Assembly: GCA_963695345.1 (NCBI GenBank)
Contig: OY968769.1
Coordinates: forward strand, 160,001-224,000
Length of the DNA: 64,000 nucleotides
Reading direction: 5' to 3'
From: an uncultured Methanomassiliicoccales archaeon
Lineage (GTDB): Archaea > Thermoplasmatota > Thermoplasmata > Methanomassiliicoccales > UBA472
The notes beneath the pieces were generated by a model. That model was not told the DNA's origin and ran no database searches. It saw only the letters and a program-made list of their open reading frames with translations. This document shows, piece by piece, positions 15,700 to 51,069 of the stretch. A program made the position numbers and the translations under genes. Within the stretch, counting starts at the first letter, position 1. Every line of letters starts with the position of its first letter.

Positions 15700-16649
15700 T
15701 GCCGTACTGAGTTGGAATGGGTTGCATATAGGGCGAAGCGTACCAACGGGCTGGTTTGGTCATATGAATACCAGAGCAACTATGTCAGTTCCTTATCAGG
15801 AATATGACCAATTTAAATCAGACGAGCTTTGACCGAGAATTCAAGAATCATGAGCGGACAGATCAATTACGCACAACCATTGGAGAAGGAGGCAAATGCC
15901 CGGACCTTTTCAGAATCAGGATGATTGGCAAATAGTATGAGAAATCGGATTTGGTAATGGTTTGAATTCAATTCAAACGATGACGAGATGAAATCGATTG
16001 TCTTTCAGTTTGTTTGCCAATTCGCTCGGCATATCATGGTTTTATCGACTAATTTTGCATCGATGTAACCATTAATTATTAAGTTCAGACCTAAACAATA
16101 ATCGTGTGTTGAAAATGTCCCGAATCGATCTTGATCGAGCCTTGATCATGGAGTCGCCAATGCCGTCCTTGAAAATTGCTCGAAATCCGACTTATAAATA
16201 GTTTATTTTTTATTAATAATATTACAATATAACAATTACATTTTATTATATTTATATAGTAACTATTTTCTTATTATAGATAATTTAATAGAAATATGAT
16301 CTAAAACGAATTGGGAAACATTTATTAGTGATTGAACTGTAGAAAAGAAAAAGTAATCATGTCCATTGCTTGGATTGCAGAAGCATATCGAATTGTAATC
16401 AATGTTAAACAGCAATTGAATCTCATGAATACCATTAGAATCTCAATCATTAATGTGTAAAATATTCCCAAAAAAGTATCCAATATTCTATATTTATAAC
16501 AATGAATTTATTGATTATTGATATTAATATATTATTATCTATATTTACATATTCCATGATTATACACTGCAACAATTCTCTGAATGGTCAGCAGGAGGAC
16601 AAGATTCGACTTACTGAAATTCTATATTAGAGGTCCGTTATCCTAGGGC

Positions 16650-17291
16650 GTGCATCTCAGCATAGCTTGCGATTTCGACGGGACAATTACTACCGTAGAT
16701 ACGGCCGAGTTAACCCTTAGAAAATTCGCTGCCGGAAAATGGGAAGTTTTCGATGCCCTTCTTGAAGAAGGGAAAATATCCCTCGAAGAATGCATGGTAG
16801 AACAGTTCAAACAGATCAAGGCCCCGAAAGAGGACATCATAAGAGTTCTCGACGCTGCGGTTGGACTTAGACCAGGCATTGAAAACTTGATCGAGTTCTG
16901 CAAGAACAAAGAGATCGAGTTCACAATTCTAAGCGCAGGCCTTGACTTCTACATCGACCATATCATCACGAAATACCGATGGGATCAGGTCAGAAGGGTG
17001 TCCGGCAAGACAAACATGGAAGACGGGATAGTTGTGGAATTCCCAAAACATCATTTTTCCGATTCCAGGACCTTCAAGGAAGATTTCGTCCGGGTCCAGA
17101 AAGAAATGTCCAAGGATGTATGGTATCTTGGAGACGGGACGTCCGATCGGGAAGGGGCGATTGCCGCCGATATGGTTTTCACAGTCACCGGTTCTCGACT
17201 GTCTGAGATAATGAAAGCGAAGGGGAAGATCCATCGGGATTTCCAGGATTTCTTCGAAGTCCTCACATTACTGAAGAATTCCCTGGCGTAG
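16650..17291 (+). CDS. HAD-IB family phosphatase (MtnX-like)
   Basis: DFDGTIT, ILSAG and YLGDGTSD motifs. Confidence 0.85.
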   Translation: MHLSIACDFDGTITTVDTAELTLRKFAAGKWEVFDALLEEGKISLEECMVEQFKQIKAPKEDIIRVLDAAVGLRPGIENLIEFCKNKEIEFTILSAGLDFYIDHIITKYRWDQVRRVSGKTNMEDGIVVEFPKHHFSDSRTFKEDFVRVQKEMSKDVWYLGDGTSDREGAIAADMVFTVTGSRLSEIMKAKGKIHRDFQDFFEVLTLLKNSLA

Positions 17292-21447: not shown

Positions 21448-22281
21448 TCATACCGCCGTCACGGTCGCCTGTGCCGATACAGGAGTAGAGGATCCAGGCA
21501 TTTTTCTTGAACATTTGGCGAGAAGTTCCTGGACCTCTTCATATGTCGTCATGTCGACGATCTGGGCGTGCTTGCCCTTCTGCAATATCATGTCCCAAAC
21601 GGAATAGCCAGTGTATATCCGGTTGGTGAGGATGCCATAGACGGTCGCCTTCTCCCATTTGGAGGCGTGCTTGGTCGGAACCTGCAAGAGGTTCAGTCTG
21701 GCGGCTATCTGGGATAAGGTGCAGCAGTCCTGGTAATCCTGGAATATCTGCCTGACAACCTCTGCCTCACCGGGTATCAATACCAGATCGTGCTCATCCC
21801 AGGCATAGCCATAAGGAGCGGGGAAACCCAAGAGACCTTTGCCTTTCTTGGCCTTCTGGGTCATGCCTACCTTGACCCTTTCACCGATCTGTTCAGATTC
21901 CAGCTGGGCAATGCGCTGTATGATATCCATGACGAAACGGCCCATGGCGGTTGTGGTATCGAAGCTCTCCTGCATCGAGTTGAACTCCTTGCCAGAATCC
22001 TTGAGCACGTTCATCATCAGAGTGAAATTGATCGAGTTACGGTGGATACGGTCCATCTTCAGAACCAAGAGAACATCCCACTTGTCGATCTCTGACATCA
22101 TCGATTTGTATGCTGGTCTTTCAATCGAACGGCCACTGTGCCCTTCATCCACATATTCGCCCGCGACCGCCCATCCACGCGCCTTGCAATAGGCGTTGAG
22201 CCGTTTGACCTGGGCTGCGATGCTGAACCCTTCCTTTGCTTGGTCTTCCGTCGAAACCCTGGCATAGAGAGCAGCACGCAT
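21448..22281 (-). CDS. Serine recombinase, copy 2
   Basis: LYARVST, SGRSIERP, KMDRIHRN, APYGY, IAARLN...W...V.GILTNRIY. Confidence 0.92.
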   Translation of the reverse strand: MRAALYARVSTEDQAKEGFSIAAQVKRLNAYCKARGWAVAGEYVDEGHSGRSIERPAYKSMMSEIDKWDVLLVLKMDRIHRNSINFTLMMNVLKDSGKEFNSMQESFDTTTAMGRFVMDIIQRIAQLESEQIGERVKVGMTQKAKKGKGLLGFPAPYGYAWDEHDLVLIPGEAEVVRQIFQDYQDCCTLSQIAARLNLLQVPTKHASKWEKATVYGILTNRIYTGYSVWDMILQKGKHAQIVDMTTYEEVQELLAKCSRKMPGSSTPVSAQATVTAV

Positions 22282-22293
22282 CGCCTTCTCACC

Positions 22294-22358
22294 TTGTCAG
22301 ACATTATTGGCTCAATAATCAATAATAATCCGACAATAAGCCGACATCTGTCTGACAA
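22294..22358. promoter_or_regulatory. Nested inverted repeats upstream of the recombinase pair
   Basis: TTGTCAGACA (22294-22303) / TGTCTGACAA (22349-22358), ATTATTG-gct-CAATAAT (22303-22319), and three (C/T)GACA units ~10 bp apart. Confidence 0.6.
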
Positions 22359-22643
22359 CTATTAATATCCTTCATCATCAATTATCATTCTAGACATCAT
22401 ACATATAATAATTTAGCTAGTTACGTTACTATAATAAATAATGCTTGATGGTTCCATTATTGAAAGCTATTTATTAATTGAAAACCTTGTTTGACATTAT
22501 TTAATTAATCAAATAACGATAATACATTCATTATTATCAGCCAATCCCTTTCCGAAACTTTAATACCCAAGATTGAATCCTCGTGACTACGTCGCAAGGG
22601 ACATTGTAGGATCCTGAACGGCAATATTAATGGGGGCCGTATC

Positions 22644-22952
22644 ATGGCTGACAAGAAAATCGCTGAACTTAAGGACAGGGAAGAGGCCACCATCGAAGTG
22701 ACCGTAACAAAGATTATGCCAGTTCGTCAATTCACAAAGAAGGACGGCGGACAGGGAAAAGTCAGGAACGTAAGCGTCAATGATGAAACCGGTTCCTGCA
22801 GAATCGCGCTCTGGGACGCCGACGCCGATATGATCGAGACCCTGGGCATTGCTGAGGGGACGAAATTGAAGTGTGTCAATTGCTTTGTCAAGCAAACGGA
22901 CTTCGGTATCGACATCTCCAGGGGACGGAAAGGAACGATAGAAAAAATCTAA
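22644..22952 (+). CDS. Single OB-fold ssDNA-binding protein (SSB/RPA-like)
   Basis: R.F.KKDGGQGKVRN..V.DETGS.RIALWD archaeal OB-fold signature. Confidence 0.85.
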   Translation: MADKKIAELKDREEATIEVTVTKIMPVRQFTKKDGGQGKVRNVSVNDETGSCRIALWDADADMIETLGIAEGTKLKCVNCFVKQTDFGIDISRGRKGTIEKI

Positions 22953-23173
22953 TCCGTTCAAACCTTTTTAATTATCGTTAGTTACGATATCACATTTATT
23001 TATTTATGAACTAGCAACAATAGGCTAGAATCGATTTTTTCTGAACCATCCAGTATCATATTCGCATCATATTTGATTTATTGTTAATAATAATTATTGA
23101 TATATTAATCAACGATTATGACCAAAATAGGAAAACTAGAATATGAAAAATAAGGAAAGGGGAAGAGAGCCCA

Positions 23174-34264: not shown

Positions 34265-35491
34265 ATGTCAGATTCTGAAGTACCCGGCACTTATGTGGAA
34301 GAGACCTCGTTGACGGCAGAACCGATCGAGGCGCTCGGAACCGGCACGGTCGCGTTCATCGGCGGATCAGTTAAAGGGCCGATACTACAACCGACACTGG
34401 TGACCGATTGGGATCAATTCGAAGGGATTTTTGGTGGCGCGGACTTTTCCAAAAAAGGATTCTGTCTTGGGCATGCTGTCCACTTGTTCTTCCTGAACCA
34501 AGGCCAAGCGGCATATATAGTTCGAGTGGCCGAGGAATCACATCTCGAATCCTCGGGACGTAATAGTGTGGCATACCGGACCGGCCTACCCTGCTTGGAG
34601 AGCATTGATGAGGTAAATTTAGTGGCCATGCCCGATGCCATTGACATATTGGACCAGCAAGAATTAGTCAGACATTGCGAGAAGCTGCGTTACCGCTTCG
34701 CCATCCTTGATTCCCCTCCCGACCCTGAGATGCCTGGGGATGCACACGACGTCATATTGCGTAGGGATAAGATGGAATCGGTAAAGGGCTACGCGGCCAT
34801 CTATTGCCCCTGGATACAGGTGCAGGACGCCGAGACCAAACAGACCCGGATGGTCCCACCGTGCGGGGCTGTCGCCGGTGTCTATTCCAGAACCGATTCC
34901 CAGAAGGGTGTTCACAAGGCACCTGCGAACGAGCCGGTCATCGGAGCCGTGGACACCGAGGTGGCAATGGACCAGAGGGAGATGAACGATCTCAACCGCC
35001 TCGGCGTCAATGTGATCCGGAAGTTCACCGGGCGCGGGTTGCTGGTGTGGGGTTCCCGAACCACCTCAAACGATCCCATCTGGAAATATGTCCAGGTCCG
35101 AAGGACGGTCAACCACCTGGAACGATCGATCTCCAAAGGGACAGAATGGGCCGTCTTCGAACCCCATGACGAGATCACCTGGTCTGAGGTTAAGAGGTCA
35201 GTGGACGAATTCCTGACCAGATCGTGGAAGGATGGGATGTTGCTGGGCACGAGACCGGAGGAGGCCTTCATCGTCCGTTGCGACCGTACCACGATGACCC
35301 AGGCAGACATCGCCAATGAAAAGCTGATCATCGAGGTCGGTGTCGCGCTGATAAGGCCATCGGAACTCATGATATTCCGTGTTTCCCATGACATGGAAAG
35401 GGTGGGCCCGAGGAAGCTGGTCGATAAGACGCTCGATGCTCCCAAAAAGAAGAAGCACTACTATATGGCCAGGACGATGCCGAAGGACTGA
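34265..35491 (+). CDS. Contractile tail sheath protein (Afp/PVC/eCIS-type)
   Basis: PGTYVEE, AFIG..KGP, RFAILD, PPCGAVAG.Y.RTD..GVHKAPANE, LN..GVN.IR, WGSRT, W.Y..VRR, WAVFEP and AFIVRCDRTTMT motifs. Confidence 0.93.
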   Translation: MSDSEVPGTYVEETSLTAEPIEALGTGTVAFIGGSVKGPILQPTLVTDWDQFEGIFGGADFSKKGFCLGHAVHLFFLNQGQAAYIVRVAEESHLESSGRNSVAYRTGLPCLESIDEVNLVAMPDAIDILDQQELVRHCEKLRYRFAILDSPPDPEMPGDAHDVILRRDKMESVKGYAAIYCPWIQVQDAETKQTRMVPPCGAVAGVYSRTDSQKGVHKAPANEPVIGAVDTEVAMDQREMNDLNRLGVNVIRKFTGRGLLVWGSRTTSNDPIWKYVQVRRTVNHLERSISKGTEWAVFEPHDEITWSEVKRSVDEFLTRSWKDGMLLGTRPEEAFIVRCDRTTMTQADIANEKLIIEVGVALIRPSELMIFRVSHDMERVGPRKLVDKTLDAPKKKKHYYMARTMPKD

Positions 35492-37650: not shown

Positions 37651-37924
37651 TATGTTCCATTGCTAGCCGGAACGGGGTATTTGACCTTAACCCCCGGCTC
37701 ACCGAATGGATATGATGCAAGGGACGCGGTCGAAGGGCCCCAGGAGATAGCCATTCGAAGTTCGCTCATTGGGGGCCTAAGAATTCATTCCTATTTACAG
37801 GGCAGAGCGAGGTAGGCAGGTTCGGGGAAAGGGGTGTGCTGAAACTCGACAATCCGCCTCTCCAACAGCATACCTGTAAAGCATGATATTCGTTCATTGC
37901 ATCATTTTATGATAAACTGGGACA

Positions 37925-40514
37925 ATGGGGTTGCTCAAAGGACTAAATCATTCTTTTAAATGGGGGTCGAAAATGTTGGAGAATGGAAAGATCGTCGTCG
38001 CAGGTGATGTGACCATAGATTGGATACAGTGGGTAACGAAACAAGGCGAATATCCAGATGGCACAATATCGTTTAACTGGACCTTGTTTCCGGGCACACG
38101 AATGAAGGCTGAGCCGGGGGGAGCCATTCTTATAGCCCGAATGGTGAGAACGGCGACGAACGTCGAGGTCGCGACCCATGAATTGTCAGGTATCGAAAAC
38201 ATTCCTCCGGAAAAGGTCCTCCATTCCATTGTCCTTCTCGATTCTTATCCTATTACTGTCGAAGGAAAGGAGAAGGTCTATCGTGTTAAGCAGCAAGGTG
38301 GCTTCAGCGGGCCTCTGAACGGAGGATTGAGGCCGCTACCAATAGTCAATGACGATGCAGGCACCCGTCTGGTCATCCTGGACGATGCAGGAAATGGTTT
38401 TCGCGACGATCGGACTGAATGGCCACAGGCGATCCTGAAAAATGGAAAATGAACCGATGATCATCCTCAAGATGATTCGACCTCTGGCCTCAGGAGCTTT
38501 ATGGGACCATCTGGTGGCCGAACATGCGGAGAATCTGATAGTCGTCATAAATGCCAACGACCTCAGGGAGATGGGAGTCAATATCAGTGGACGACTCTCC
38601 TGGGAGCAGACCGCTGAGGACTTCTCATGGCAGATTGTCAACAATCCCCGAATAAGGTCCCTCGCTGCCTGTAAGAACCTCATAGTGCGATTCGGGCTGG
38701 ATGGGGCAATTCAATACTCGAACAATGATGGTAAGATCAAGGCTGCTCTTTTTTTCGATCCAAAATCATGCGAAGATGAGTTCAAAGAACATCTAAAAGG
38801 AGAGATGCAGGGTGAGATGGCGGCCTTCGTGGCCGCGCTCGCCTCGAGAATTAATGGTGAAGGTTTAGATGGTATCGAAGGCGGGATATGCGATGGCATC
38901 CTAAGGTCCAGACAGCTGCTGAGATCGGGGTTCGGGCCCGCCAATAGGGAACCTGCTTACCCCATATCGGCAATCTTCGGATCGAGCATCGATGCGAAGA
39001 CCATATGCAAGGTTCACATACCAACTTTCATTAACAAAGGGTCGAACGATGGAGACAACTGGAGGATACTCGAGGAGTGCACCAGGGGACGATTGGAGTC
39101 CATCGCCTACCAAGCGGTTCTAAAACCGACCGAGGAGTCTATGGACGCGGCTCCCAACGCCAGGTTCGGGGCGCTTTTCACCTTCGATAGGATCGAGATC
39201 GAGAGCTATCGCAGCATCAGGAACCTGATGACCGAGTATCTGGAACGGAAGGATGCCAAGGCTCCTCTCTCCATGGCGGTGTTCGGACCGCCGGGTTCGG
39301 GAAGTCATTCGGGGTGACACAACTGGCAATGGGCATCGATCCCGAAAGGGTTGTCAAAATGGAGTTCAATGTCGCCCAGTTCACCTCCGTCGATGACCTT
39401 ACCGACGCGTTCCACAAGCTAAGGGACCTGGTACTTGAGGGTAAGGTCCCCTTGGTATTCTTCGACGAGTTCGATGCCTCGTTCAATGGGGAACTGGGAT
39501 GGCTCAAGTATTTCCTGGCCCCGATGCAGGACGGCCTGTTCAAGGACGGGGAGACGATGCACCCTGTTGGCAAATCGATCTTTGTCTTCGCTGGAGGGAC
39601 GAGCAACACCTTCCAGCAGTTCTCCAGGGAGCACCGTCGATGGATAGACGGTTGACGATGAAAGCATGCTGAAGAAGTTCAGGGAAGCAAAAGGAACGGA
39701 CTTTGTCAGCAGACTAAGAGGCTACGTCAACGTCATGGGACCGAACCGTGCTGGGGATGACGACGCGTTTTTCATCATCAGGAGGGCGCTGCTCTTCCGT
39801 TCTCTGCTGGAGAGAAAAGCACCGCAAATTTTCGATGACCGCGGAAACGCGCGGATCGACCCGGGAGTTCTGCGCGGCTTCCTGAAAGTCCCGACGTACA
39901 AGCACGGGGCGAGATCGATGGAGGCGATCATCGATATGAGCATACTTGCGGGGAAGATACGTTACGATCAAGCGTGCCTGCCGCCGGCCAAACAGCTCGA
40001 TCTCCATGTCGACTCGGCGATGTTCTCAAAGCTCGTCCTGCGTGATGTTCTCTTCGGCGACGCAATGGAACGTCTGGCGAGAGCGATATACGAACAATAT
40101 CACATCGATCAGAAGGATAAGCAGTACCCCGACGAAGCGGCCATGCAGCCGTGGGGAAGCTTGGGGGAGGACCTAAGGCGATCCAATCGAGAGCAGGCGC
40201 AACAGATCCCTGAAAAGCTCCTACGTATTGGCTACGATTTCATGCCATTTTCAGAGAGACCAACAACATCCCTCGTCCTATCAGACGAACAACTTGAGGT
40301 CCTCGCAGAAATGGAGCATCAGAGATGGGTCGCTGAACGATTGGAGGAAGGATGGACCTATGGAAATCCACGAGACCCGGAAAGGAGGGTCAGCCCTTAC
40401 CTGGTTCCCTGGCAGGAGCTAAACGAGGAAGTGAAGGGCTGGGACAGGAACGCGGTGAGAAAAATTCCCGATCTTCTAATGATGGCGGGTTTCGAGGCAT
40501 ATAGATTACAATGA
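37925..40514 (+). CDS. PfkB-like/AAA-ATPase/RyR-domain protein (frameshifts near 38440, 39300, 39655)
   Basis: IVVAGDVTIDW (ribokinase-like start), Walker A GPPGSG(KS) split by a frameshift, Walker B VFFDEFD, FLAPMQDG, DFVSRLRG, and C-terminal RyR EHQRW..ER..EGW.YG...PYLVPW.EL. Confidence 0.8.
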
Positions 40515-40841
40515 ATTTGAGGACTTGTGGCTGACAAAGCATTCCAAGAATTTCGACATAGTTTGAATGCGATCCACCATGATTTACATGGCGCCAATCG
40601 ATAGCCCATTGCTCAAGATACGAACTACTATCAATTCCATTTAAAGAAGGTTAGTCCATCTTCATTATTAATATAATATATTTAAAGGAATTAAAGTTAC
40701 GTTCGGCAACAACCTTTTGGAAGGGCGGGACGAATGCTCAATTGAAATGAGCTCCCTAGCCTCCTATTTATTCCATTGTTAGTCATTATCTAGTTACACA
40801 ATTATGGTTTGCAGAGATCGGGGGCAGGGGAGGTCCAATTC

Positions 40842-41546
40842 GTGTTTGGTAAACCGAATATTGTGAAGATGGAGCAGAACAAAGATATCGAGGGGCTCAT
40901 CAAAGCGTTGATCTATGAAAAGGATGACAAGATCCGATCTGACGCTGCCGTGGCCCTCAGCCACATAGGAGACCTTCGTGCCGTTGAACCTTTATTGAGA
41001 GCAACAAACGATTCTGACCATCGCGTTCGTTCAGTGGCAGCGGTTGCCATAAACGATATCCGGAAAAATCATAGTAAAGAAGATGGAGAAAAAACGGTCA
41101 GACCAGAAAAAGGTGCAATTTCTTCTAACAATTCTGCGATTGAAAGTAAAGTCGAAAAAAAAACTGAGGGAGGCCATCCAAAAGATGTTTGGGGCGGTTC
41201 CGAACCGATTGATGGAAGAGTCGATGACACCAAGAAGCGTTCCATCACTGTCTTCGTCTCCTCCACTTTCAGAGACATGCAGGCCGAGCGGGACGATCTC
41301 CTAGAAGAGGACTTCTCCGAACTTAGGAAAATCTGCGAACAGCGTGACGTGACATGGGGAGAGGTCGACCTTCGCTGGGGCATAACCGATGATGAGAAAG
41401 CGGAAGGAAAGGTCCTTCCCATCTGCCTGGCAGAGATCGATCGCTGCAGACCTTACTTCATCGGTATGCTCGGGGAGAGATCCGGATACGGTTCATGTGG
41501 TTCATTTGCGCTATTTTGTCAGCTAGATTTTATAAATTCTCGGTAA
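40842..41546 (+). CDS. HEAT-repeat plus N-terminal part of a DUF4062 (TIR-like) domain
   Basis: DIEGLIKAL...RSDAAVAL..IGDLRAVEPL (HEAT), then VFVSSTFRDMQAERD...VDLRWGI...ICLAEIDRCRPYFIGMLGER (DUF4062). Confidence 0.85.
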   Translation: MFGKPNIVKMEQNKDIEGLIKALIYEKDDKIRSDAAVALSHIGDLRAVEPLLRATNDSDHRVRSVAAVAINDIRKNHSKEDGEKTVRPEKGAISSNNSAIESKVEKKTEGGHPKDVWGGSEPIDGRVDDTKKRSITVFVSSTFRDMQAERDDLLEEDFSELRKICEQRDVTWGEVDLRWGITDDEKAEGKVLPICLAEIDRCRPYFIGMLGERSGYGSCGSFALFCQLDFINSR

Positions 41547-43066
41547 GAACTTGCGAATTATGGAGGCTTCTACTGAAGCAGGCATGCCTATACAGCCAAG
41601 CTAACGTCCTCTATTTCCAAGGCGATCCGGTAGGGGCCATGGCGCTCTACAAGGAACAGGAGCGGATATGCCGGGAAATGGACTACAAGGACAGCCTACG
41701 AGCAAGCCTTGGGAGCCAAGCGAATATTCTTTGTGATCGAGGTGAGCTGGACGGAGCTATGGCTCTGCATAAGGAAGAGGAACGATTGTGCCGGGAACTG
41801 GGCTACAAAGATGGCCTACGAGCAAGCCTTGGGAGCCAAGCTGGCGTTCTATACATTCGAAACAATCTTGACGGAGCTATGGCTCTGCATAAGGAAGAGG
41901 AACGATTGTGCCGGGAACTGGGCAATAAGGATGGCCTGCAGAGATGCGTGGGCAACCAGGCAAATGTTCTTCGTGTTCGGGGAGAGCTGGATGGAGCAAT
42001 GAGGCTTCTCAAGGCACAGGAATGCATATGCCGGGAATTGGGTAACAGAGAGGGCTTGCAGAAATGCCAGGGCAACCAGGCGAAGGTCCTTCGCGCTCGG
42101 GGGGACCTGGTTGGCGCTATGGCGCTCTACAAGGAACAGGAGCGGATATGCCGGGAAATGAGCAAAAAGGAAGGCCTGCAGACGTGCCTTTGGAACCAAG
42201 CTCTCATCCTTCGCGCTCGGGGGGACCTGGTTGGCGCTATGGCGCTCTACAAGGAACAGGAGCGGATATGCCGGGAAATGAGCTACAAAGATAGTCTGCA
42301 GGCATGTCTGGGCAACCAGGCGACCCTCCTTTGTGATCAACGCGAGCTTGTCGGAGCCATGGCACTATACAAAGAACAGGAGCGGATGTGCCAGGAAATG
42401 AACAACCGGGACGGCCTGCAGATATGTCTGGGCAACCAGGCAAAGGTACTTCGCGCTCGAGGGGATCGGGACGGGGCCATGAGGCTGCTCAAGGAACAGG
42501 AGCGGATATGCCAGGAAATGAACAACCGGGACGGTCTGCAAAAGTGCCTCAGCGAACAGGCGATCGTCCTTTGCAGTCGGGGGGACCTGAATGGAGCCAT
42601 AGCGTTCCACATAGAACAGGAGCGGATGGGCCGCGACATGGGCAATAAGGAAAACATATCGAGAAACCTAGGCAACCAAGCTGGTGCCCTCTTTACCCGG
42701 GGAGATCTGGACGGATCCATGAGGTTGCTCAAGGAACAAGAGCGAATGTTCCTAGAAGTGAACAACCGGGACGGCCTGCAGATATGTCTGGGCAACCAGG
42801 CAAAGGTACTTCGCGCTCGAGGGGATCGTGACGGGGCCATGAGGCTGCTCAAGGAACAGGAGCGGATGTGCCGGGAATTGGGTGATAAAGAGAGCCTTAC
42901 CAATGCCCTCATCAAGCAATCCCTTCTTCTAGCTGAATTGAAACGATCGAAGGAGGCCATATTGATCGCCGAGGAGGCATATAGAACCGCATATGAACTT
43001 CGCAATTTCGCTCTAGCCAAACATATTGAATCGATGCTAATTCGAATTCGTAATGAAACACCATGA
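41495..43066 (+). CDS. TPR-like solenoid with 11 near-identical 40-aa repeats
   Basis: Repeated G.LDGAM.L.KEQERICRE.GN.DGLQ.CLGNQA..L. Confidence 0.85.
   Translation: MWFICAILSARFYKFSVRTCELWRLLLKQACLYSQANVLYFQGDPVGAMALYKEQERICREMDYKDSLRASLGSQANILCDRGELDGAMALHKEEERLCRELGYKDGLRASLGSQAGVLYIRNNLDGAMALHKEEERLCRELGNKDGLQRCVGNQANVLRVRGELDGAMRLLKAQECICRELGNREGLQKCQGNQAKVLRARGDLVGAMALYKEQERICREMSKKEGLQTCLWNQALILRARGDLVGAMALYKEQERICREMSYKDSLQACLGNQATLLCDQRELVGAMALYKEQERMCQEMNNRDGLQICLGNQAKVLRARGDRDGAMRLLKEQERICQEMNNRDGLQKCLSEQAIVLCSRGDLNGAIAFHIEQERMGRDMGNKENISRNLGNQAGALFTRGDLDGSMRLLKEQERMFLEVNNRDGLQICLGNQAKVLRARGDRDGAMRLLKEQERMCRELGDKESLTNALIKQSLLLAELKRSKEAILIAEEAYRTAYELRNFALAKHIESMLIRIRNETP
41581..42920 (+). 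repeat. 120-bp coding tandem repeat, 11 copies
   Basis: For example GGCGCTCTACAAGGAACAGGAGCGGATATGCCGGGAAATG is identical at 41641, 42121 and 42241. The period is exactly 120 bp. Confidence 0.92.
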
Positions 43067-43324
43067 AAGATGTCGAGTGGATTCATCGACTCAATTGATG
43101 GTCCAGCAATGCGGCATCGGCCATCTATCTGCGATTCAACTTGGGCAAATATTCGCTCATGATTGTGAGAGTGTGAATATTGCCTCAGGTATCGACATTG
43201 ATCCCGCTTTTCATCTCATACTCAGAGTAATGTTAGGCCGTTTGTTAGGCGCGTTATGGATATTTCAGGCCATCACTATTTGATATGATATAAGAGCAGA
43301 TATCATTGCCAGACATACCCTTTC

Positions 43325-46000
43325 TTAGTCAATCCTCTCCTCTACCAGTTCCCCCGTCTCGGAATTGATCCAGAGAATCGGTCGATTTAGACTGCGGGCG
43401 TATCGTACTGTCTCTCCGGTACCGCCTCGACCTGCCGCCTCGTCACCATTCCATATGGCTATCAGGACGTCGCAATAGTCTACGACGTATCTCCCGGCTC
43501 GTTCGTACGCCTCCTCTCTGGATTCTGTATGGGAAATGACCTCGACCGAGGCCGCTTGCCCAATATATCCTTCAAACTCCGCCTTTGAATCCGAGGATCT
43601 GAAATCCAGCAAGTAGTCCTCTTCTGGCATAGGTAGAATTGCCTCAATGATCGTTCTATGATCGCTATCCGAAGCATCGATTTCAAGCGCCTCTTTCACG
43701 ACGAGACGATCGGCCCCTTCCGCCAGCGGGGTAAGGATCACTCGATTGACCTTGCCGTTCCTAATGGCAAAGGACCAAATGCTATCCGTTCGAGCTATGG
43801 CCTGCCTTGTCCTCTTGCGTATATCATCTATCATTTCAGTTCGCAGATTCCTATGTCCAGTAACCCCTATGCGTATGGTTTCCAACGGGAACGGATGCTC
43901 CAAATATTTCTCATCCCCATATGCGCGCTTTAGAAGTGAATGGTCGGATTCCAGGATCCCTTTTTCCACCTCAATGCGGTAAATCGTAAGGTCGCCCCTT
44001 GCCAGGATTGAAGGCCATTCTGAGATCTCTTTGTCGACATTGTTATGAAATCTCAATATCGCATCCCTCTCCTTCGAGTCGAATTCGAACCTCTTGTTTT
44101 CAATTGGTCCCGTTCCTGATATTCCGCATCCGGCTGCTTTTACGCACGATTCTATCAGCCAGGCCTTATTCTGATATCTTGTCTTCTCTTGGGCATCCAA
44201 TGTGAACCAGAATGGGGCCTTTCGATTCGGAGGCTGCTTGTTATGATCGTCGAAGAAGATGGTTTGGGCGATAATGTCGTTAATGTCCATCTTGCATATT
44301 TTCTGGTAGACCCCAGCGAGGATCATGGGTATGTTACGGACTGAGCTTAGATCTTTGAATCTATCCGCGTCGTCCAATCTATCCCATTCAACCATGCTCC
44401 TATGCTGCTTCTTCTTCTTTCTCTTGTAAGCCCACCATCGTTCGTGTTCCATCCTGGATAGCCTGTCCAGCTCAAAGGGACTGAACTCAAATGGTTCCTC
44501 GAGCCAATCAGTTAAGGTCTCGACCTGACAGTTGATCGCCCTCATCTTTATGGAAATGCCATCGGCCTGAGCCCGGTTGTCATCTTTGAACTCCTCGCTT
44601 AATGGTCCCCACGGCAGCAACGAATCCTTCTTTGGTTCGCCCCTATGTTCGTTTAGGTACTCTTCATGGATCACTTGGGCGATGAGCTCGTTAGTGCCGT
44701 GCTCGATAAGCCCTCTGGTGCACACACTGTCCCATAGACCGAAGAAATGGACGTTCCCGACCATCGTCGTTTCCTTATCTTCGCTAAGGAGTTTAGCCAG
44801 ACCGTCGATCGTGTTCAACCGAACGACGATCGGGACGTTGAGAATCAGCTTCCTGAGCCCAATTGCATGCGATAGACCGACCTTGTCATCAGCGAGGCAG
44901 ATGAAGGCGCAAGAAAGGGGTTGTCCAACCTTAAGTTCAGATGATAGGTCCTTTCCAATGCCGTCATCTGAATTGAGATGTGAATCGATTCCTTCAATGA
45001 GGCAGACATCTTCAAGGAAGGATATGTCGGAATAGAGATTTCATTCTCTTTTTGGCGGCCTTATCCACGACCGTAATGGACAGTCGGACCCCGGATTTCT
45101 TGAATGTTCTTATCCATTTTCTGGCCGCCCCGATCAAAATTTTCTCGCCCATATCTCCCAGGCCAAGGATCAATATGTGACCATTAGGTAGCTGATCATC
45201 TTGAATATCTGGATATGGAAAATGCTCGTTAAGCACCATCCTGGCGCCCTGTTCCCAGAAATTGAAGAACTCCAATCTGATGTTCTTGTGATTGGTGTTC
45301 AGTTCCCGGGTCTTCATCAGTGTTCGGAGTTGCTCATCCTGGACGTGAACATAACAGGTTAGAGGGTCTGAACTGCGCCCATCGACCAGTTTCAACGCAT
45401 GGAATCCGATATCTGCGTTCCCATCATCAGAACCGATGGAGGGAACAATGAACCTGGCTCTTTTTATTCCAGCCTTTTCCAGAACGTCCTCATCCGTGGC
45501 ATCGCCATAGAGTATTAGGGAGTTCGAGTCCTTTTCATCCTCAAGGAATCCATTGTTCTTGTTCTTCTCTATGATCACCACCTGATATTCACTCTCAAGG
45601 GCCTTGACGAAACGGGAACCTACTTTGCCCGCACCGCAGATAATGACGTGGTCGCCGCAGGACATCAGCAATAAACGGCGCAATGGTTCGGAAAATGCTT
45701 TCGAAACTATCAAAGACGCAGTCCATAGGGAAAAGAACAGCGCGGTCCAACGAGCGATGTCGAGAAGCATGGAATAGGCATTGCCAGACCAATCGAGCAG
45801 GCCAGATCGGAGTAAGAACAGTTGGAATGTATAATAGATAGTGTCTGGCCAGGATACGTTCATACCTTTGTGGACAAAATATTCCTGGAAACCGAAATAG
45901 CCAAAGATGACCGTGATCAACCATGCAAAGGCAAAGACATACAGACCGAACCGCCGAATAAAACGACCGAGCGGCTAATTCCTCTTCTTATTCCATTGAT
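43325..46000 (-). CDS. 2TM channel-like / TrkA_N (x2) / RyR / SLOG multidomain protein (frameshift near 45030, start uncertain)
   Basis: TM-DTIYYTFQLF-TM; HVIICGAGKVG, GDATDEDVL..AGI and HILILGLG.MG; RyR IAQVIHEEY..PW..L.EEFKDDNR..A and SRMEHERW; SLOG IGVTGHR, LAEGAD, AY..AG..VVD.CDVLIAIWNG....GGT...V.YA. Confidence 0.8.
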
Positions 46001-46482
46001 CATTTTGCGCTCGATCGATATATTACGAGGGGCGGTCACATCTTCAGCATCATTCTCTATTAGTTTATATTTTCTCAATATTTTTTATTTAGCCTGAGCT
46101 TGACCAGTTGGACCTCTGAAATTTCACTAGTTTTTGAATCTGACAGGAGATTGCTAGAGGCAGGAACTCAAATGAAATCGCCCAAAGACGGGCGATTGCT
46201 AGGTCGCACATAGATATTCGGCCAAAATGGCCTTGTTAACCGGGCGATGGGAGGAGGCCTTGCAGATGTTCATGGACTCCTTTTTCGAACGGTTCATGAC
46301 CTATGTCGAATTGGATGAGGAAAAGCTTAAGCCAAATGAAAGAGAACAACGAGATATTCTCCGTATGATGATTCCTGATTGGCAAAGACAATTGGAGAGA
46401 GTCGGCCAAAAATAATTGGAAAACGTTCAAAGCGCTATCGACCAGTCAAAAATCTAACCCGACCTGAGCCGGACGAAGTTCC

Positions 46483-46737
46483 CTATTGGACCAGCTCGAT
46501 TACGGCTACTGCACTTTGTCCGGTGGTGTCCGCCTCTATTTCCTTCCTGGTCACATCCTTTTCATAGAGCCGTATCTTTCCATCCGGGAGGTTAATTATC
46601 TGGAGAGTGCTGGCTTGTTTGACCACCTGCTCCGAATGTTCCAAGCTTCTGTAGATGCCTTCGATCTTTCTGATCGTACTGTCATCACTGCCAGTGTAAT
46701 GTTCATTCCTACGAATTCTGTATGCCGTTTCTGCCAT
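46483..46737 (-). CDS. Hypothetical 84-aa protein
   Basis: Intact ORF with a TATA-like TAAATATATA upstream. No recognisable motif. Confidence 0.45.
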   Translation of the reverse strand: MAETAYRIRRNEHYTGSDDSTIRKIEGIYRSLEHSEQVVKQASTLQIINLPDGKIRLYEKDVTRKEIEADTTGQSAVAVIELVQ

Positions 46738-46973
46738 TTCAATCGCTAAGATTACTCCATTCGATGTCTATATATATTTAAGGATGGAAAAAATCCAGCT
46801 AAAAGGGGCATGCGATGAGGGTTAAGCCCCCATATATAAGGCAGGGAGCTCCCTAGCTCCATCCCTCGATCTCGATGAAAATAAGATCCGCTTGATGAGA
46901 AAGTCGGACAAGTGGATATCACTTTTATGGACGGGCTCGTGTTTACAAATGGCGATGTCAAGTGGCGATAGCA

Positions 46974-47105
46974 ATGAATTGGGGAACGCTGGGGCTCGGA
47001 TCGGTCGTGGCATTCGTCATAGGTTGGTTCCTATTTGGCCTGCTTGGCGCGGTGATATTGGCGATCATTGTTCTAGTTCAAATGGGAATACTGAAATTCA
47101 GATAA
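46974..47105 (+). CDS. 43-aa hydrophobic membrane peptide A (not in the ORF track)
   Basis: MNWGTLGLGSVVAFVIGWFLFGLLGAVILAIIVLVQMGILKFR*, similar to 47323-47493. Confidence 0.7.
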   Translation: MNWGTLGLGSVVAFVIGWFLFGLLGAVILAIIVLVQMGILKFR

Positions 47106-47322
47106 TAGGTGAAATAATGGCCCAGCTGAGACCTGCCGTTTTCAGTTGGAATCTCTTTCCCAGTCGTTTGGGTGATTCCTTACCATTCATACGATGGAAT
47201 GAATATATCACTCAGGTGGTCTAACCTTGTATGAAATCTAACAGATAATCCATTGAAAAGAAACTGGTGAAGGTCGACACTTTAATTAGGCATGGGCTGC
47301 GCTTCATTCGTCGGGTGATGGA

Positions 47323-47493
47323 ATGGCTATGAGCATGAATTGGGGAGCAATAGGAATTATCGGAGTCGTACTATTTCTGATCGGCTGGTATTTTTTTAGT
47401 TTACTGCCCGCCGTATTAATTGCACTAGCTGTAGTCGTCTTGATGAGCATTCTGAGAATAGGCTGGAAAAGACCGAATCCTAAAGAGAAGTGA
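47323..47493 (+). CDS. 56-aa hydrophobic membrane peptide B (not in the ORF track)
   Basis: GGGTGA RBS, then MAMSMNWGAIGIIGVVLFLIGWYFFSLLPAVLIALAVVVLMSILRIGWKRPNPKEK*. Confidence 0.7.
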   Translation: MAMSMNWGAIGIIGVVLFLIGWYFFSLLPAVLIALAVVVLMSILRIGWKRPNPKEK

Positions 47494-47599
47494 GAATATT
47501 ATTTGAAAAGGGATCAAACATATCTGTTGGACAAGTTCACTGAAGAGGGGATCGTTCCTCACGATCATAACGCTGCAGAACGTCATGGGCATGGACTCG

Positions 47600-47800
47600 G
47601 ATGAAATCGGAGATAGCATCAAGCATATCACTCAGGTGGCTGGTTCGCGTTCAAACCGACCGATCTGAGGCGGACGTTCGGGTCACACACCGTGGTTGCA
47701 GCATAGACATCGTGACAAATCGCGGGGGTATGAGGCACAGGTCCCCGGACTTGACCTCCCGGTGCCATTTCGGAGGACCGAGGACATGTTCTCGACGGCT
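47600..47800 (+). pseudogene. Tyrosine recombinase/integrase C-terminal remnant
   Basis: FKPTDLRRTFG (47650-47682), then after a shift GCSIDIV...MRHRSPDLTSRC, matching the box II H-LRR..H..T..Y pattern in degenerate form. Confidence 0.55.
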
Positions 47801-47904
47801 ATGGACAATCTTGTACCAAACACGCCGAGCCGTTCTAAACACATGTTCATATTATCCTAACCCAGGGTGCGCCGAATAGCGACGAATGATGCTGGTAGCC
47901 TCCA

Positions 47905-48425: not shown

Positions 48426-51069
48426 ATGGAAAAAATGCGGAAAGAGGAAGTCTCCAACACCGGGCTCCCCGGCCTGGACAATATCCTGAACGGAGTCATA
48501 CTGGGAGATAACGTTGTCTTTCAGGTGGACACCATTGATGACTATTCCCGTTTCGTGAAGCCATTTTGTATCGAGGCGGGGAGGCGAAACAAGGATCTGA
48601 TCTACTTCCGTTTTGCCAACCACAAGGAAGTGATCCCCGAGGGATACAGCGACCACGTTTTTGTGCTGCACCCCGAGCAAGGATTCGAGATTTTCATCTC
48701 TGATATTTTCAATGTCATTGAAAGATTCGGGAAAGGGGCATTCTATGTCTTCGATTGCCTGTCAGAACTATCCGTCGATTGGTACAGCGACCGCATGCTG
48801 GGCAACTTCTTCATGCTGACCTGCCCCTATCTCTACGATTACAAGACGGTCACCTATTTCGCACTCGTCCGCAACCGCCATTCCTCGTTTGCCATCGATG
48901 CCATCCATAATACCGCACAGGTCGTCATGGACGTATTCAATCACAAGAACGAGATATATGTCCACCCCCTGAAAGTGGATGGCAGGCGGTCAAGAACCAT
49001 GTACATGCTGCATCGCTGGGAAGGGGAGGAATTCAAACCCGTCCTGACCAGCACGATGACGGCGGAGATCCTATCGGGGGTTCCTCAACCATGGTTGGAT
49101 TTCTCCATGCACCAGCGGGACATATGGACAAGAAGTTTCTCGCTGGCACAGGAGATGGTCAATACCACAGAGTCTGACGGATCGGAGGAGTTGAAGAGCA
49201 GTCGCCTCTTTGACCGATTGGTACGCATGGCCATAACGAGGGATGCTCGACCGTTGAGGCTGATCGAACAGTACCTCGATTTCTCGGACGTCGTTGACAT
49301 CGGAAAGCGCATGATCGGGACAGGGCTGATCGGCGGAAAATCCGTCGGGATGCTGCTGGCTCGCGCCATCCTGAAGAAAAATAACGTGGAGTGGTCGAAC
49401 AAGCTCGAGCCTCATGATTCCTTCTTCATCGGTTCGGACGTGTTCTACACATATCTGATCCAAAACCATTGCTGGTGGATCAGGCGAAAGCTCAACGATC
49501 CCGAGTCCGGATTTGTTCTGGACGCGAAGGCCAAAGAGCGACTGTTGACCGGGATATTTCCCAACGACATCGAAGACCAGTTCATGAAGATGCTCGAATA
49601 TTTCGGGCAGTCCCCCATCATCGTCCGTTCCTCCAGCCTTCTGGAGGACGCCTACGGGAATGCCTTCTCCGGGAAATATGAGAGCATCTTCTGCGCCAAT
49701 CAGGGGACGCCCCAGGTCAGGCTTGAGAACTTCTTGAACGCGATCCGCAAGGTCTATACGAGCACTCTGAGCGAAGAGGCCCTGGCATATCGAGAGCATT
49801 GGGGCCTGCTCGACCGGGATGAGCAGATGGCGATCCTTGTGCAGCGCGTATCCGGTTCCGTATATGATGATCAGTTCTTCCCCCAGATCGCCGGGGTGGG
49901 AGTATCCTACAATCCATACGTATGGAACAAGGAGATAGACCCCGAGGCGGGAATGATACGCCTTGTCTTTGGTCTCGGGACAAGGGCGGTTGACCGGATA
50001 GAAGACGATTACACCCGCATCGTGGCCTTGAACGCTCCATCAAGAAGGCCGGAATCCAGTTCCGAGGACATAAGGACGTTCTCCCAGAAAAGAGGAGACA
50101 TCATAGATCTGGCTGGAAATCGCCTCACGACAAGGTCTTTCGAGGAGGTGGTGGGAAAACTTCCCGATTATCCCATTGACATTTTCGCCTCCCGTGATCT
50201 TGCCTTGGAAAGGCGTATTCAGGATGCCGGAGGAAAGGAGGTCTTTTCGTGGATGCTTACTTTCGATGACCTGCTGTCCAAAGGGCCGTTCGTGAAAGAC
50301 ATGAGGGACATGATGAGCATCCTTGAAGATGCCTATGATCATCCGGTCGATATCGAGTTCACAGCAAACTTTTCGGACGTCTCCGATTACAAAATAAACC
50401 TCCTCCAGTGCAGGCCATTCCAGTCCAAGGGGAATATCTTGGCCGTGGAGAACCCGCGCTCCATCCCGAAAGACAGGATCGTCCTGGAATCCAAAGGACC
50501 GGTCATCGGAAGCAATAAGTCGGTCACCATCGACAGGATCATCTACGTTGTTCCGGAGGTCTATGGAAACATGAAAATGAGCGACAGATACGCGGTTGCC
50601 AGGCTTGTCGGGAAATTGACCCACTTGAAGGACAAGGGAGAAAAGCCGACCATTCTGCTTGTCGGGGCCTGGACGATGGGCAACGGCCGATCCCAGTCTG
50701 GGAGTCCCTGTCTCATTCTCTGAGATCAACACTGTCTCCGTACTCTGCGAAGTGGTCGCTATGCATGAAGGGCTGGTCCCTGAGGCATCCTTGGGGACGC
50801 ACTTCTTCAACGATCTGGTCGAGGTGGACATGCTCTATTGCGCAGTTTACCCCAAGAAGGATGGAGATACTCTGAACCAAGAATTCTTTGGCAAATCCGA
50901 GAATCGACTGACCTCCCTGTTGCCTGAAGCGAGTCCATACAGCTCTGCGGTCAAGGTCATCGATGGGAGCGGAGATAAGACCGGCCTTATGATCTGCGTG
51001 AATTCAGATGTGTCAAGACAGAGGCTGACCTGTTACCTCGACTCCAAGGAGGACAAGACCGATCAATAA
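48426..51069 (+). CDS. KaiC/RecA-like N-terminal domain fused to a PPDK/PEP-synthase nucleotide-binding domain (frameshift near 50665)
   Basis: TGLPGLDNILNG; IGGKSVG, PIIVRSSSLLED..G.AFSGKYES, GLGTRAV, VDIEF, LLQCRP, GPGRW and SLGTHFF motifs. Confidence 0.85.

Follow-up and report, generated by a model that had tools for sequence, protein, structure and literature searches.

In the Thoeris systems, as described in the accessible text of a recent preprint, type VII consists of a TIR protein and the SLATT effector ThsH, which are linked by cyclic ADP-ribose (cADPR) as the signal, type X combines a TIR protein with an ion-channel effector, and the SLOG domain of ThsA binds 3'cADPR (10.64898/2025.12.03.692087). 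DUF4062 is characterized, in the available portions of two further preprints, as a TIR-like NADase yielding ADP-ribose (ADPR) and nicotinamide, which also serves as the N-terminal effector of the STAND protein Avs2 (10.64898/2026.05.01.722283; 10.64898/2026.09.04.749371). On the side of the viruses, phage proteins with a RyR domain bind 2'cADPR, 3'cADPR and cADPR in the nanomolar to sub-micromolar range, and one of them cleaves cyclic signals; their ligand contacts (H-x-x-W, a further His/Lys and an Asp) are conserved in PF02026, and a cellular counterpart of these proteins is named in neither of the two 2026 preprints, as far as their accessible text extends (PMC13232231; 10.64898/2026.06.04.730250). 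Here we analyze three multidomain genes located within 37.9-46.0 kb of a 64,000-nt stretch of DNA, hereafter the window, of an uncultured Methanomassiliicoccales archaeon of the lineage UBA472 (assembly GCA_963695345.1, contig OY968769.1, positions 160,001-224,000 of the forward strand). Gene A encodes a PfkB-like domain, an AAA+ ATPase and a RyR domain, gene B contains HEAT, DUF4062 and TPR segments, and gene C unites a two-transmembrane (2TM) module, TrkA_N/RCK, RyR and SLOG; each of the three is split into frame pieces. In our reading, the island that carries them contains a signalling (conflict) system based on products of nicotinamide adenine dinucleotide (NAD) that is modular, has spread horizontally and is partly decayed in the present copy; we assign this reading a probability of roughly 0.55.

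The original prediction, made from the letters of the window, had placed three large multidomain loci at 37925-46000 in a region of lower G+C content. The loci are indeed present there, their domains being backed by Pfam, by homologue alignments and by AlphaFold/Foldseek, and the lower G+C content is confirmed (0.499 in the island, 0.56 in the genome). Nowhere else in the 2.56-Mb genome is there a RyR domain (two in these 8 kb), a SLOG of the gene C family (one) or a DUF4062 (one). In the literature, no described system of the A/B/C composition was found, Thoeris types VII and X being the nearest. RyR is not mentioned in the main text of the Thoeris preprint (10.64898/2025.12.03.692087), its Table S1 lying outside that search, and RyR, SLOG and SLATT have no occurrences in the two preprints on DUF4062 (10.64898/2026.05.01.722283; 10.64898/2026.09.04.749371). 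Host-side RyR together with SLOG, TIR or DUF4062 was not found in the main texts, with supplementary tables and the 2015 SLOG/SLATT paper outside the scope. The trio would thus be an undescribed, decayed and possibly inert variant of Thoeris/Avs-like signalling, and the Thoeris/NLR-like logic with a membrane effector, which had been suggested at the outset, remains the best reading of the locus.

Four modules would make up such a system: a STAND NLR-like protein with an N-terminal NAD-cleaving DUF4062/NIR domain (TIR elsewhere) and a TPR or WD40 sensor; the ATPase of the gene A type with PfkB-like, AAA+ and RyR domains; a SLOG protein, either on its own or joined to a SLATT pore domain; and a membrane protein derived from K+ channels, composed of 2TM, RCK and RyR. 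In the window, the latter two would be fused as gene C. The association of these modules is that of a modular signalling system, unlike that of chance neighbours, because rare domains stand side by side, are fused to each other and are mutually substituted. This was followed in two surveys, the first of which covered the best 80 loci among 458 species-level genomes with a relative of gene A, searched with our own profiles within ±10 kb. A 2TM-TrkA_N(-RyR) gene adjoined A in nine of these 80 loci, SLOG in ten and DUF4062 in six, so that at least one of the three was present in 18. The partnered loci came from archaea, from 12 bacterial metagenome-assembled genomes (MAGs) of non-Bacillota phyla and from two Eubacteriales MAGs. 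The second survey was centred on SLOG and comprised 80 metagenome loci, many of them just 1-6 kb long; it revealed A in 20 loci, 2TM-TrkA_N in 13 and DUF4062 in 12, with any of the three in 31. Of the SLOG loci, 18 were flanked by 3 kb or more on each side, and in 9 of these A was located within 3 kb. Co-occurrence of the three architectures, proposed beforehand as a check, is therefore observed in both surveys and in many phyla.

Across phyla, the modules are repeatedly arranged in tight operons, encoded on one strand, with 3-80 nt between the genes. The order A, small SLOG gene, DUF4062-NACHT-TPR/WD40 gene was found in loci L138, L159 and L174, the order A, SLOG, 2TM-RCK-RyR in L135 and L149, and all four modules are brought together in L120 and L172. 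A TIR protein takes part in further loci: in L026, the gene after A encodes TIR-STAND-TPR, in L019 the order is TIR, SLOG-SLATT, A, and a TPR-TIR protein adjoins A in L032. In L162 (1-1533) and L143 (1851-3955) the ATPase itself has the composition PfkB-AAA-SLOG, with SLOG instead of the usual C-terminal RyR, and a 2TM-RCK-RyR gene comes next, while L117 encodes a SLOG-RyR fusion. RyR and SLOG substitute for each other at the same operon position, and so do TIR and DUF4062. Proteins consisting of RelA_SpoT and a C-terminal RyR are encoded directly downstream of A homologues in L039 (11646-14225) and L031 (12898-15624); the middle domain of the L039 protein is LSDAT_prok, the prokaryotic TRPM-type SLOG, and a DUF4062 segment begins 10 nt further on. 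A 346-aa protein encoded near the A homologue of L027 (7619-8659) combines a phosphatase domain of the dual-specificity/polymorphic-toxin type with RyR.

The steps that would link the NADase activity and the cADPR/3'cADPR binding shown by others to the domains, the deletion, the island and the recurrent association observed in this work can be proposed as follows. The NLR-like protein would sense an invader, oligomerise and convert NAD+ to ADPR or to a cyclic ADPR isomer. This product might be bound by RyR and SLOG as interchangeable receptors, and binding would open the channel-derived protein or the SLATT pore, permeabilising the membrane, and would also activate the AAA+ ATPase with its ribokinase-like domain, the presumable final step being cell arrest. 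In the present genome, the signal generator would be dead through the loss of the catalytic half and the NTPase of gene B, and genes A and C would be intact apart from indels.

Gene A (37916-40511 on the plus strand, with a probable start codon near 37973) is distributed over four frame pieces. The first one (37916-38449) contains the start of a ribokinase/PfkB-like domain, as it is colinear with residues 1 to about 165 of intact homologues and agrees with the fold of the homologue model described below. As judged by homologue alignment, the PfkB-like domain is completed in the second piece (38439-39314), which also encodes a linker and Walker A, the latter motif being interrupted at its Lys codon by a 1-nt indel within a short A run. 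The AAA+ core, including Walker B and sensor 1, is encoded by the third piece (39191-39652; homologue alignment; AAAcore HMM, E 3e-59), and the AAA+ lid and a Repeat12-like RyR domain, detected by Pfam at 40020-40511, by the fourth (39648-40511); all of them are on the plus strand. RyR (PF02026; E 2.7e-16, 60 bits vs. the cut-off of 27.4) is the sole Pfam match on these pieces, and Pfam PfkB gave none. In a phmmer comparison with the RyR repeats of the PDB (E 5.8e-26), the H-x-x-W ligand motif is aligned. Aligned with intact homologues of about 850 aa (63-74% identity), the four pieces follow one another colinearly with nothing lost, and no further lesions were observed.

The homologues of gene A bear in their sources the names 'RyR domain-containing protein' or 'AAA family ATPase', the nearest named one belonging to a Methanomassiliicoccus MAG, which bears out the archaeal host given in the original prediction. 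RyR was recognized in most, and PF00004 in some, of the 173 longer homologues found, and Walker A and Walker B are invariant across 120 homologues. The fold was analyzed with an AlphaFold model of the homologue P0121 (72% identical to gene A), built from a 120-sequence alignment with a mean predicted confidence (pLDDT) of 93.4. According to Foldseek, this model resembles ribokinase/PfkB kinases, namely fructokinase, LacC, HldA, ribokinase and nucleoside kinase (E 4e-8 to 1e-6, TMt 0.48-0.64), as well as the AAA+ unfoldases Skd3, ClpB and ClpC and human RyR3's Repeat12 domain with bound ADP and dantrolene. Gene A had no match in phages and was found in 3 of 72,556 plasmids. On one Methylobacterium plasmid (locus L214; NZ_CP107533.1, 1302-11679), a gene A homologue adjoins a gene for a SIR2 protein of about 2080 aa, a helix-turn-helix gene and transposases, which is a single case.

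Gene C (45974-43328, minus strand) comprises two pieces. The first (45015-45974, minus) encodes a K+-channel-derived 2TM module in which the GYG filter is missing, together with TrkA_N/RCK and another region of Rossmann-like type, as derived from the TrkA_N match and from the alignment with the 2TM protein P0014; the second (43328-45040, minus) encodes a linker, RyR (44273-44740) and SLOG (43328-43903), recognized by profile HMMs and by the model with Foldseek. TrkA_N (PF02254) is matched with E 1.2e-18, and the NCBIfam TrkA and Kch models match in part. RyR and SLOG stay below the Pfam cut-offs (15.3 bits vs. 27.4 for RyR; 12.8 bits vs. 26.2 for the SLOG model cpYpsA), and profiles built from homologues recover both of them (1e-49 and 1e-78, respectively). 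The structure modelled from the window's own sequence has a pLDDT of 75.6 overall and of more than 90 in RyR and SLOG. Its SLOG domain resembles YpsA (2nx2; E 2e-6, TMt 0.71) and also DprA, ShosA, the SLOG domain of ThsA with 3'cADPR (7uxs), the MoCo carrier and LOG, and its RyR domain resembles 6uhs (TMt 0.47), 6uhe and 9l92, the Bt-hRyR12 chimera and RyR3 R12 being among its matches. The occurrence of RyR in two of the three genes, as originally predicted, is hence supported by Pfam for A and by profile and fold for C.

In the SLOG domain, the columns G-V-T-G-H-R, L-A-E-G-A-D-R and G-T are almost invariant. The C-terminal ~180 aa of gene C share 40-47% identity with SLOG-SLATT proteins of about 540 aa; these relatives have a C-terminal SLATT (PF18181; SLATT_1 in L026), which gene C lacks. 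The complete fusion 2TM-RCK-RyR-SLOG occurs in P0002, P0041, P0073 and P0093 as well. The N-terminal 320 aa align end-to-end, over TM1, the pore helix, TM2 and RCK, with P0014, a true 2TM K+ channel with RCK (31% identity). The TxGYGD selectivity filter of P0014 is replaced in gene C and its close relatives, and Ion_trans_2 has no match on gene C at E values up to 5. The 'channel' of the original prediction is, therefore, borne out by the alignment but not by the filter, and as a predicted property it probably denotes ancestry. At the 5' end, no in-frame ATG, GTG or TTG precedes TM1 (45975-46003, minus), and some 30 nt upstream there is an ATG in a neighbouring frame, suggesting one more indel.

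Gene B (40794-43063, plus strand) also consists of two pieces. The first (40794-41543, plus) contains HEAT repeats and the N-terminal half of DUF4062 (41214-41498), as evidenced by Pfam and by alignment with ten DUF4062 NLR homologues; the second (41396-43063, plus) is a TPR array of 120-nt units (41651-42877) revealed by Pfam and TRF. The respective Pfam matches are HEAT_2 (E 9e-8), DUF4062 (E 1e-9), TPR_MalT (3e-16), TPR_10 and TPR_12, and TRF resolved the 120-nt period as 2.9 copies at 75% matches and 8.4 copies at 70%. The DUF4062 match covers profile positions 2-67 only and is thus an incomplete domain. Homology to the ten relatives ends after the conserved G-x-R-Y-G, ahead of a conserved S-x-T-E-x-E block. 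In other DUF4062 proteins, according to the accessible text of both preprints, the catalytic Glu is at E97-E108 (10.64898/2026.05.01.722283; 10.64898/2026.09.04.749371), and, judging from its position, the block missing from gene B should contain this Glu.

The extent of the loss becomes evident from comparison with the 1215-aa NLR of L117, which matches the present genome at residues 31-114 and 668-1211 only; its TPR part shares 48% identity over 551 aa with the second piece of gene B, and the intervening ~550 aa (115-667) have no match anywhere in the genome. A NACHT/STAND domain is located between DUF4062 and TPR or WD40 in seven of the eight DUF4062 neighbours tested, whereas in gene B about 100 nt separate the end of DUF4062 (41498) from the first TPR, without a NACHT/STAND NTPase. 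In terms of sequence, gene B is an internally deleted NLR-like gene that has kept its HEAT segment, half of the NADase domain and the TPR array.

As to the ligand contacts of RyR, the H-x-x-W and the later Asp (in a D-R motif) are kept, by eye, in both A and C. Where the second, phosphate-binding His would be expected, A has Ser and C has His, as read by eye on the PDB RyR alignments alone. RyR had been proposed to couple the channel to the ATPase, for which we found no support; it is more likely a ligand sensor for ADPR-type signals than a protein coupler, because the phage RyR binds cADPR isomers and because RyR and SLOG replace each other in operons. A broader proposal can be made only tentatively, as we hold it at somewhat less than even odds: RyR (Repeat12) may be a host receptor for NAD-derived immune signals made by TIR/DUF4062 NLRs, the interchangeable RyR and SLOG domains passing the signal to a panel of effectors that would include the 2TM-RCK protein, SLATT pores, the PfkB-AAA+ machine, RelA/SpoT-like enzymes and a phosphatase.

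The three genes and a few small open reading frames (ORFs) occupy an accessory island of about 10.1 kb (37709-47857), which is an insertion relative to a closed genome of the same genus (G007). The distance from the Nre gene to the PPDK-like gene is about 600 bp in G007 vs. 10.8 kb in the window, and blastn of the G007 junction places its flanks at window positions 37708 and 47858. The two blastn alignments share 21 nt of the G007 query, the empty site having a single repeat copy; since ~21 nt align on both sides, each border of the island bears a copy of a direct repeat, imperfect and about 22 nt long, the left copy being at 37686-37710 and the right one at 47856-47880, as was also seen by sequence inspection. 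No integrase was found within the island, and no tRNA in the window, hence none at the island border. The flanks contain Nre, radical SAM, phage-sheath-like and PPDK-like genes.

Two small paralogous ORFs on the plus strand of the island (46899-47105 and 47290-47493) encode membrane peptides of about 45-55 aa with a similar M-N-W-G start. Just outside the island, a lone phage-tail-sheath-like gene is present at 34265-35491 on the plus strand (Phage_sheath_1, 7e-18; sheath C-terminal domain, 2e-11); it also occurs in G007, at 70% identity, and may be part of a contractile-injection or prophage remnant. Further patches of low G+C content at 16001-17000 (0.35) and 22001-23000 (0.43) of the window may be additional accessory insertions.

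Several observations weigh against the island being a copy of a joint signalling system. The data on ligand binding by RyR come from phage proteins, the host RyR proteins being known from sequence and model alone. The present copy of gene B probably cannot signal, because it has neither the catalytic region nor any of the NACHT module; hence the DUF4062/TPR gene fails as the working signal producer it had been taken for. With PADLOC v2, neither A and C nor the intact proteins homologous to them were assigned to a known defence family; window pieces and intact homologues together gave no match at the level of a system, but only generic TPR/HEAT models, a weak ShosA match (E 0.0087) and, on the neighbour in L026, TIR models. 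The flanks of the island contain no known defence gene. No partner was present within ±10 kb in 62 of the 80 loci of the A-centred survey, those listed belonging mostly to Clostridia and other Bacillota. Within the order, the A homologues of G064, G026, G040 and G035 stand alone in the same ±10 kb, as do the 2TM-RCK-RyR homologues without SLOG of G072, G016, G009 and G022. The nearest relative of A is from an archaeon related at the level of the order, those of C are from same-genus and same-family archaea, and those of B are from metagenome operons. Co-inheritance of the trio was rejected as evidence, because the loci with the best relatives differ between A, B and C. Moreover, DUF4062-STAND-TPR is described, in the accessible text of the preprints, as a self-contained Avs-type defence acting by NAD+ depletion (10.64898/2026.05.01.722283; 10.64898/2026.09.04.749371), so that the neighbours of such a gene could be independent island cargo.

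These same solitary occurrences, the differing nearest relatives and the Avs2 precedent are what favours the strongest of the rival explanations, namely that each of A, B and C is a one-gene module independent of the others, the three merely sharing an integration hotspot or island, with the intact relatives of B acting as stand-alone Avs-like NADases, A as a nucleotide-sensing ATPase and C as a ligand-gated membrane protein, likewise on their own. We consider this rather unlikely in view of the same-strand operons with their 3-80 nt gaps across phyla, of the exchange of TIR and DUF4062 at one operon position, of the proximity of A in half of the well-flanked SLOG loci (9/18, within 3 kb) and of the Rosetta-stone fusions RyR-SLOG (L117, L039, gene C and the P0041 group), SLOG-PfkB-AAA (L162, L143) and SLOG-2TM-RCK-RyR.

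Much less probable is a housekeeping role, in which a relative of RCK channels and an AAA+ protein would sense adenine nucleotides or NAD metabolites via RyR and SLOG as a nucleotide-regulated ion-homeostasis module outside immunity. Such a role would suit the TrkA_N/RCK domains and the descent from K+ channels, the lack of defence genes nearby, the frequency of A in Clostridia with ordinary neighbours (e.g., in large generic clusters) and the description of RyR Repeat12, in the available part of one preprint, as an ATP/drug-binding metabolic sensor (10.64898/2026.06.04.730250). It is at variance with the patchy distribution of gene A, which was found in 9 of the 151 sampled genomes of the order and was lacking from all 46 other genomes of the family, with the position of the island as an insertion between direct repeats, with the recurrence of these genes beside TIR, DUF4062-NACHT, SLATT and RelA_SpoT-type domains and with the loss of the K+ selectivity filter.

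The frame breaks were evaluated against the quality of the assembly, a single closed contig of 2.56 Mb with a completeness of 85%, as frame-breaking indels are frequent in it and pseudogene calls therefore need an assembly-indel control. For this control, 157 ORFs of at least 300 aa were taken from 400 kb of G007 (99% complete). An orthologue-like match in the present genome was obtained for 101 of them, and 24 of these 101 were broken across frames, including proteins 90-98% identical to G007; altogether, 34 frame changes per 47,350 aa were counted. An IleRS-like gene of the present genome (G000:2448653-2450521) likewise has its middle portion in another frame. Examples of frame-breaking indels in the window itself are found at about 50638-50714, in the PPDK-like gene, and at about 1384-2529. 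All breaks of A and C are located at short A/G runs. In view of this proportion of split conserved genes (24 of 101), the frameshifts of A and C are probably assembly errors; the four breaks in ~5.3 kb vs. ~1.3 expected at the genome-wide rate leave some room for real decay of these two genes. That the whole island is a dead relic, with A and C as pseudogenes carrying real frameshifts, seems nevertheless very unlikely, for all the real deletion of ~550 aa in gene B, the excess of frameshifts and the possible extra break at the 5' end of gene C, given the assembly-wide splitting of conserved genes (IleRS-like gene included), the low completeness for a single closed contig, the position of every A/C break at a short A/G run and the lack of other lesions in genes with 63-74% identity to intact homologues.

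For the present genome itself, the significance of the signalling-system reading is modest, since the copy is decayed and the assembly error-prone; the interest resides in the association at the level of the families. The gene associations point to host proteins that use the phage-type RyR domain, interchangeably with SLOG, beside TIR/DUF4062 NLR-like proteins. TRPM channels carry a SLOG-like domain, and TRPM2 and RyR are gated by ADPR/cADPR. If a family of host RyR receptors does exist, it would be a prokaryotic forerunner of such ADPR/cADPR-gated channels as RyR and TRPM2 and would explain why phages carry RyR-domain sponges. The gene associations also bear on the old question of cADPR action on ryanodine receptors via Repeat12.

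Compared with the known systems, gene C corresponds to the 2TM K+ channels with RCK of the MthK/Kch type in its TM1, pore helix, TM2 and RCK, all of which align with the Kch-like P0014, and departs from them, together with its close relatives, in the replaced TxGYGD filter. With the phage proteins RyDEP and RyR Tad, as far as these are described in the accessible text, A and C share the PF02026/Repeat12 fold and, as read by eye, the H-x-x-W and the later Asp; the phage proteins, small in size, act as anti-defence sponges or glycosidases, whereas the RyR considered here is built into large host proteins, internally or at the C-terminus. The relatives of gene B have the DUF4062-NACHT/STAND-TPR/WD40 architecture of PsAvs2, a member of the Avs2-type DUF4062/NIR STAND proteins, among which are also Swarozyc, Vulcan, Vesta and Evangelion. 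In gene B itself, by contrast, neither the catalytic Glu region nor the NTPase is present, and there is an N-terminal HEAT segment; the described systems of this type, within the accessible text, act by NAD+ depletion and have no RyR or SLOG partners. Finally, the likeness to Thoeris consists in an NAD-cleaving domain of the TIR type beside an effector which bears a domain for binding the signal and whose output is at the membrane. A TIR protein is directly adjacent to SLOG-SLATT and/or A in three homologous loci (L019, L026 and L032), and the SLOG fold of gene C is similar to that of ThsA (7uxs). Thoeris type I is composed of the TIR protein ThsB and of ThsA with SIR2-SLOG, while the window genes are free of TIR (by Pfam), SIR2 and SLATT; the producer domain in the window is instead a DUF4062 of the kind borne by STAND NLR-like proteins, and it is accompanied by two extra partners, PfkB-AAA+-RyR and 2TM-RCK-RyR.

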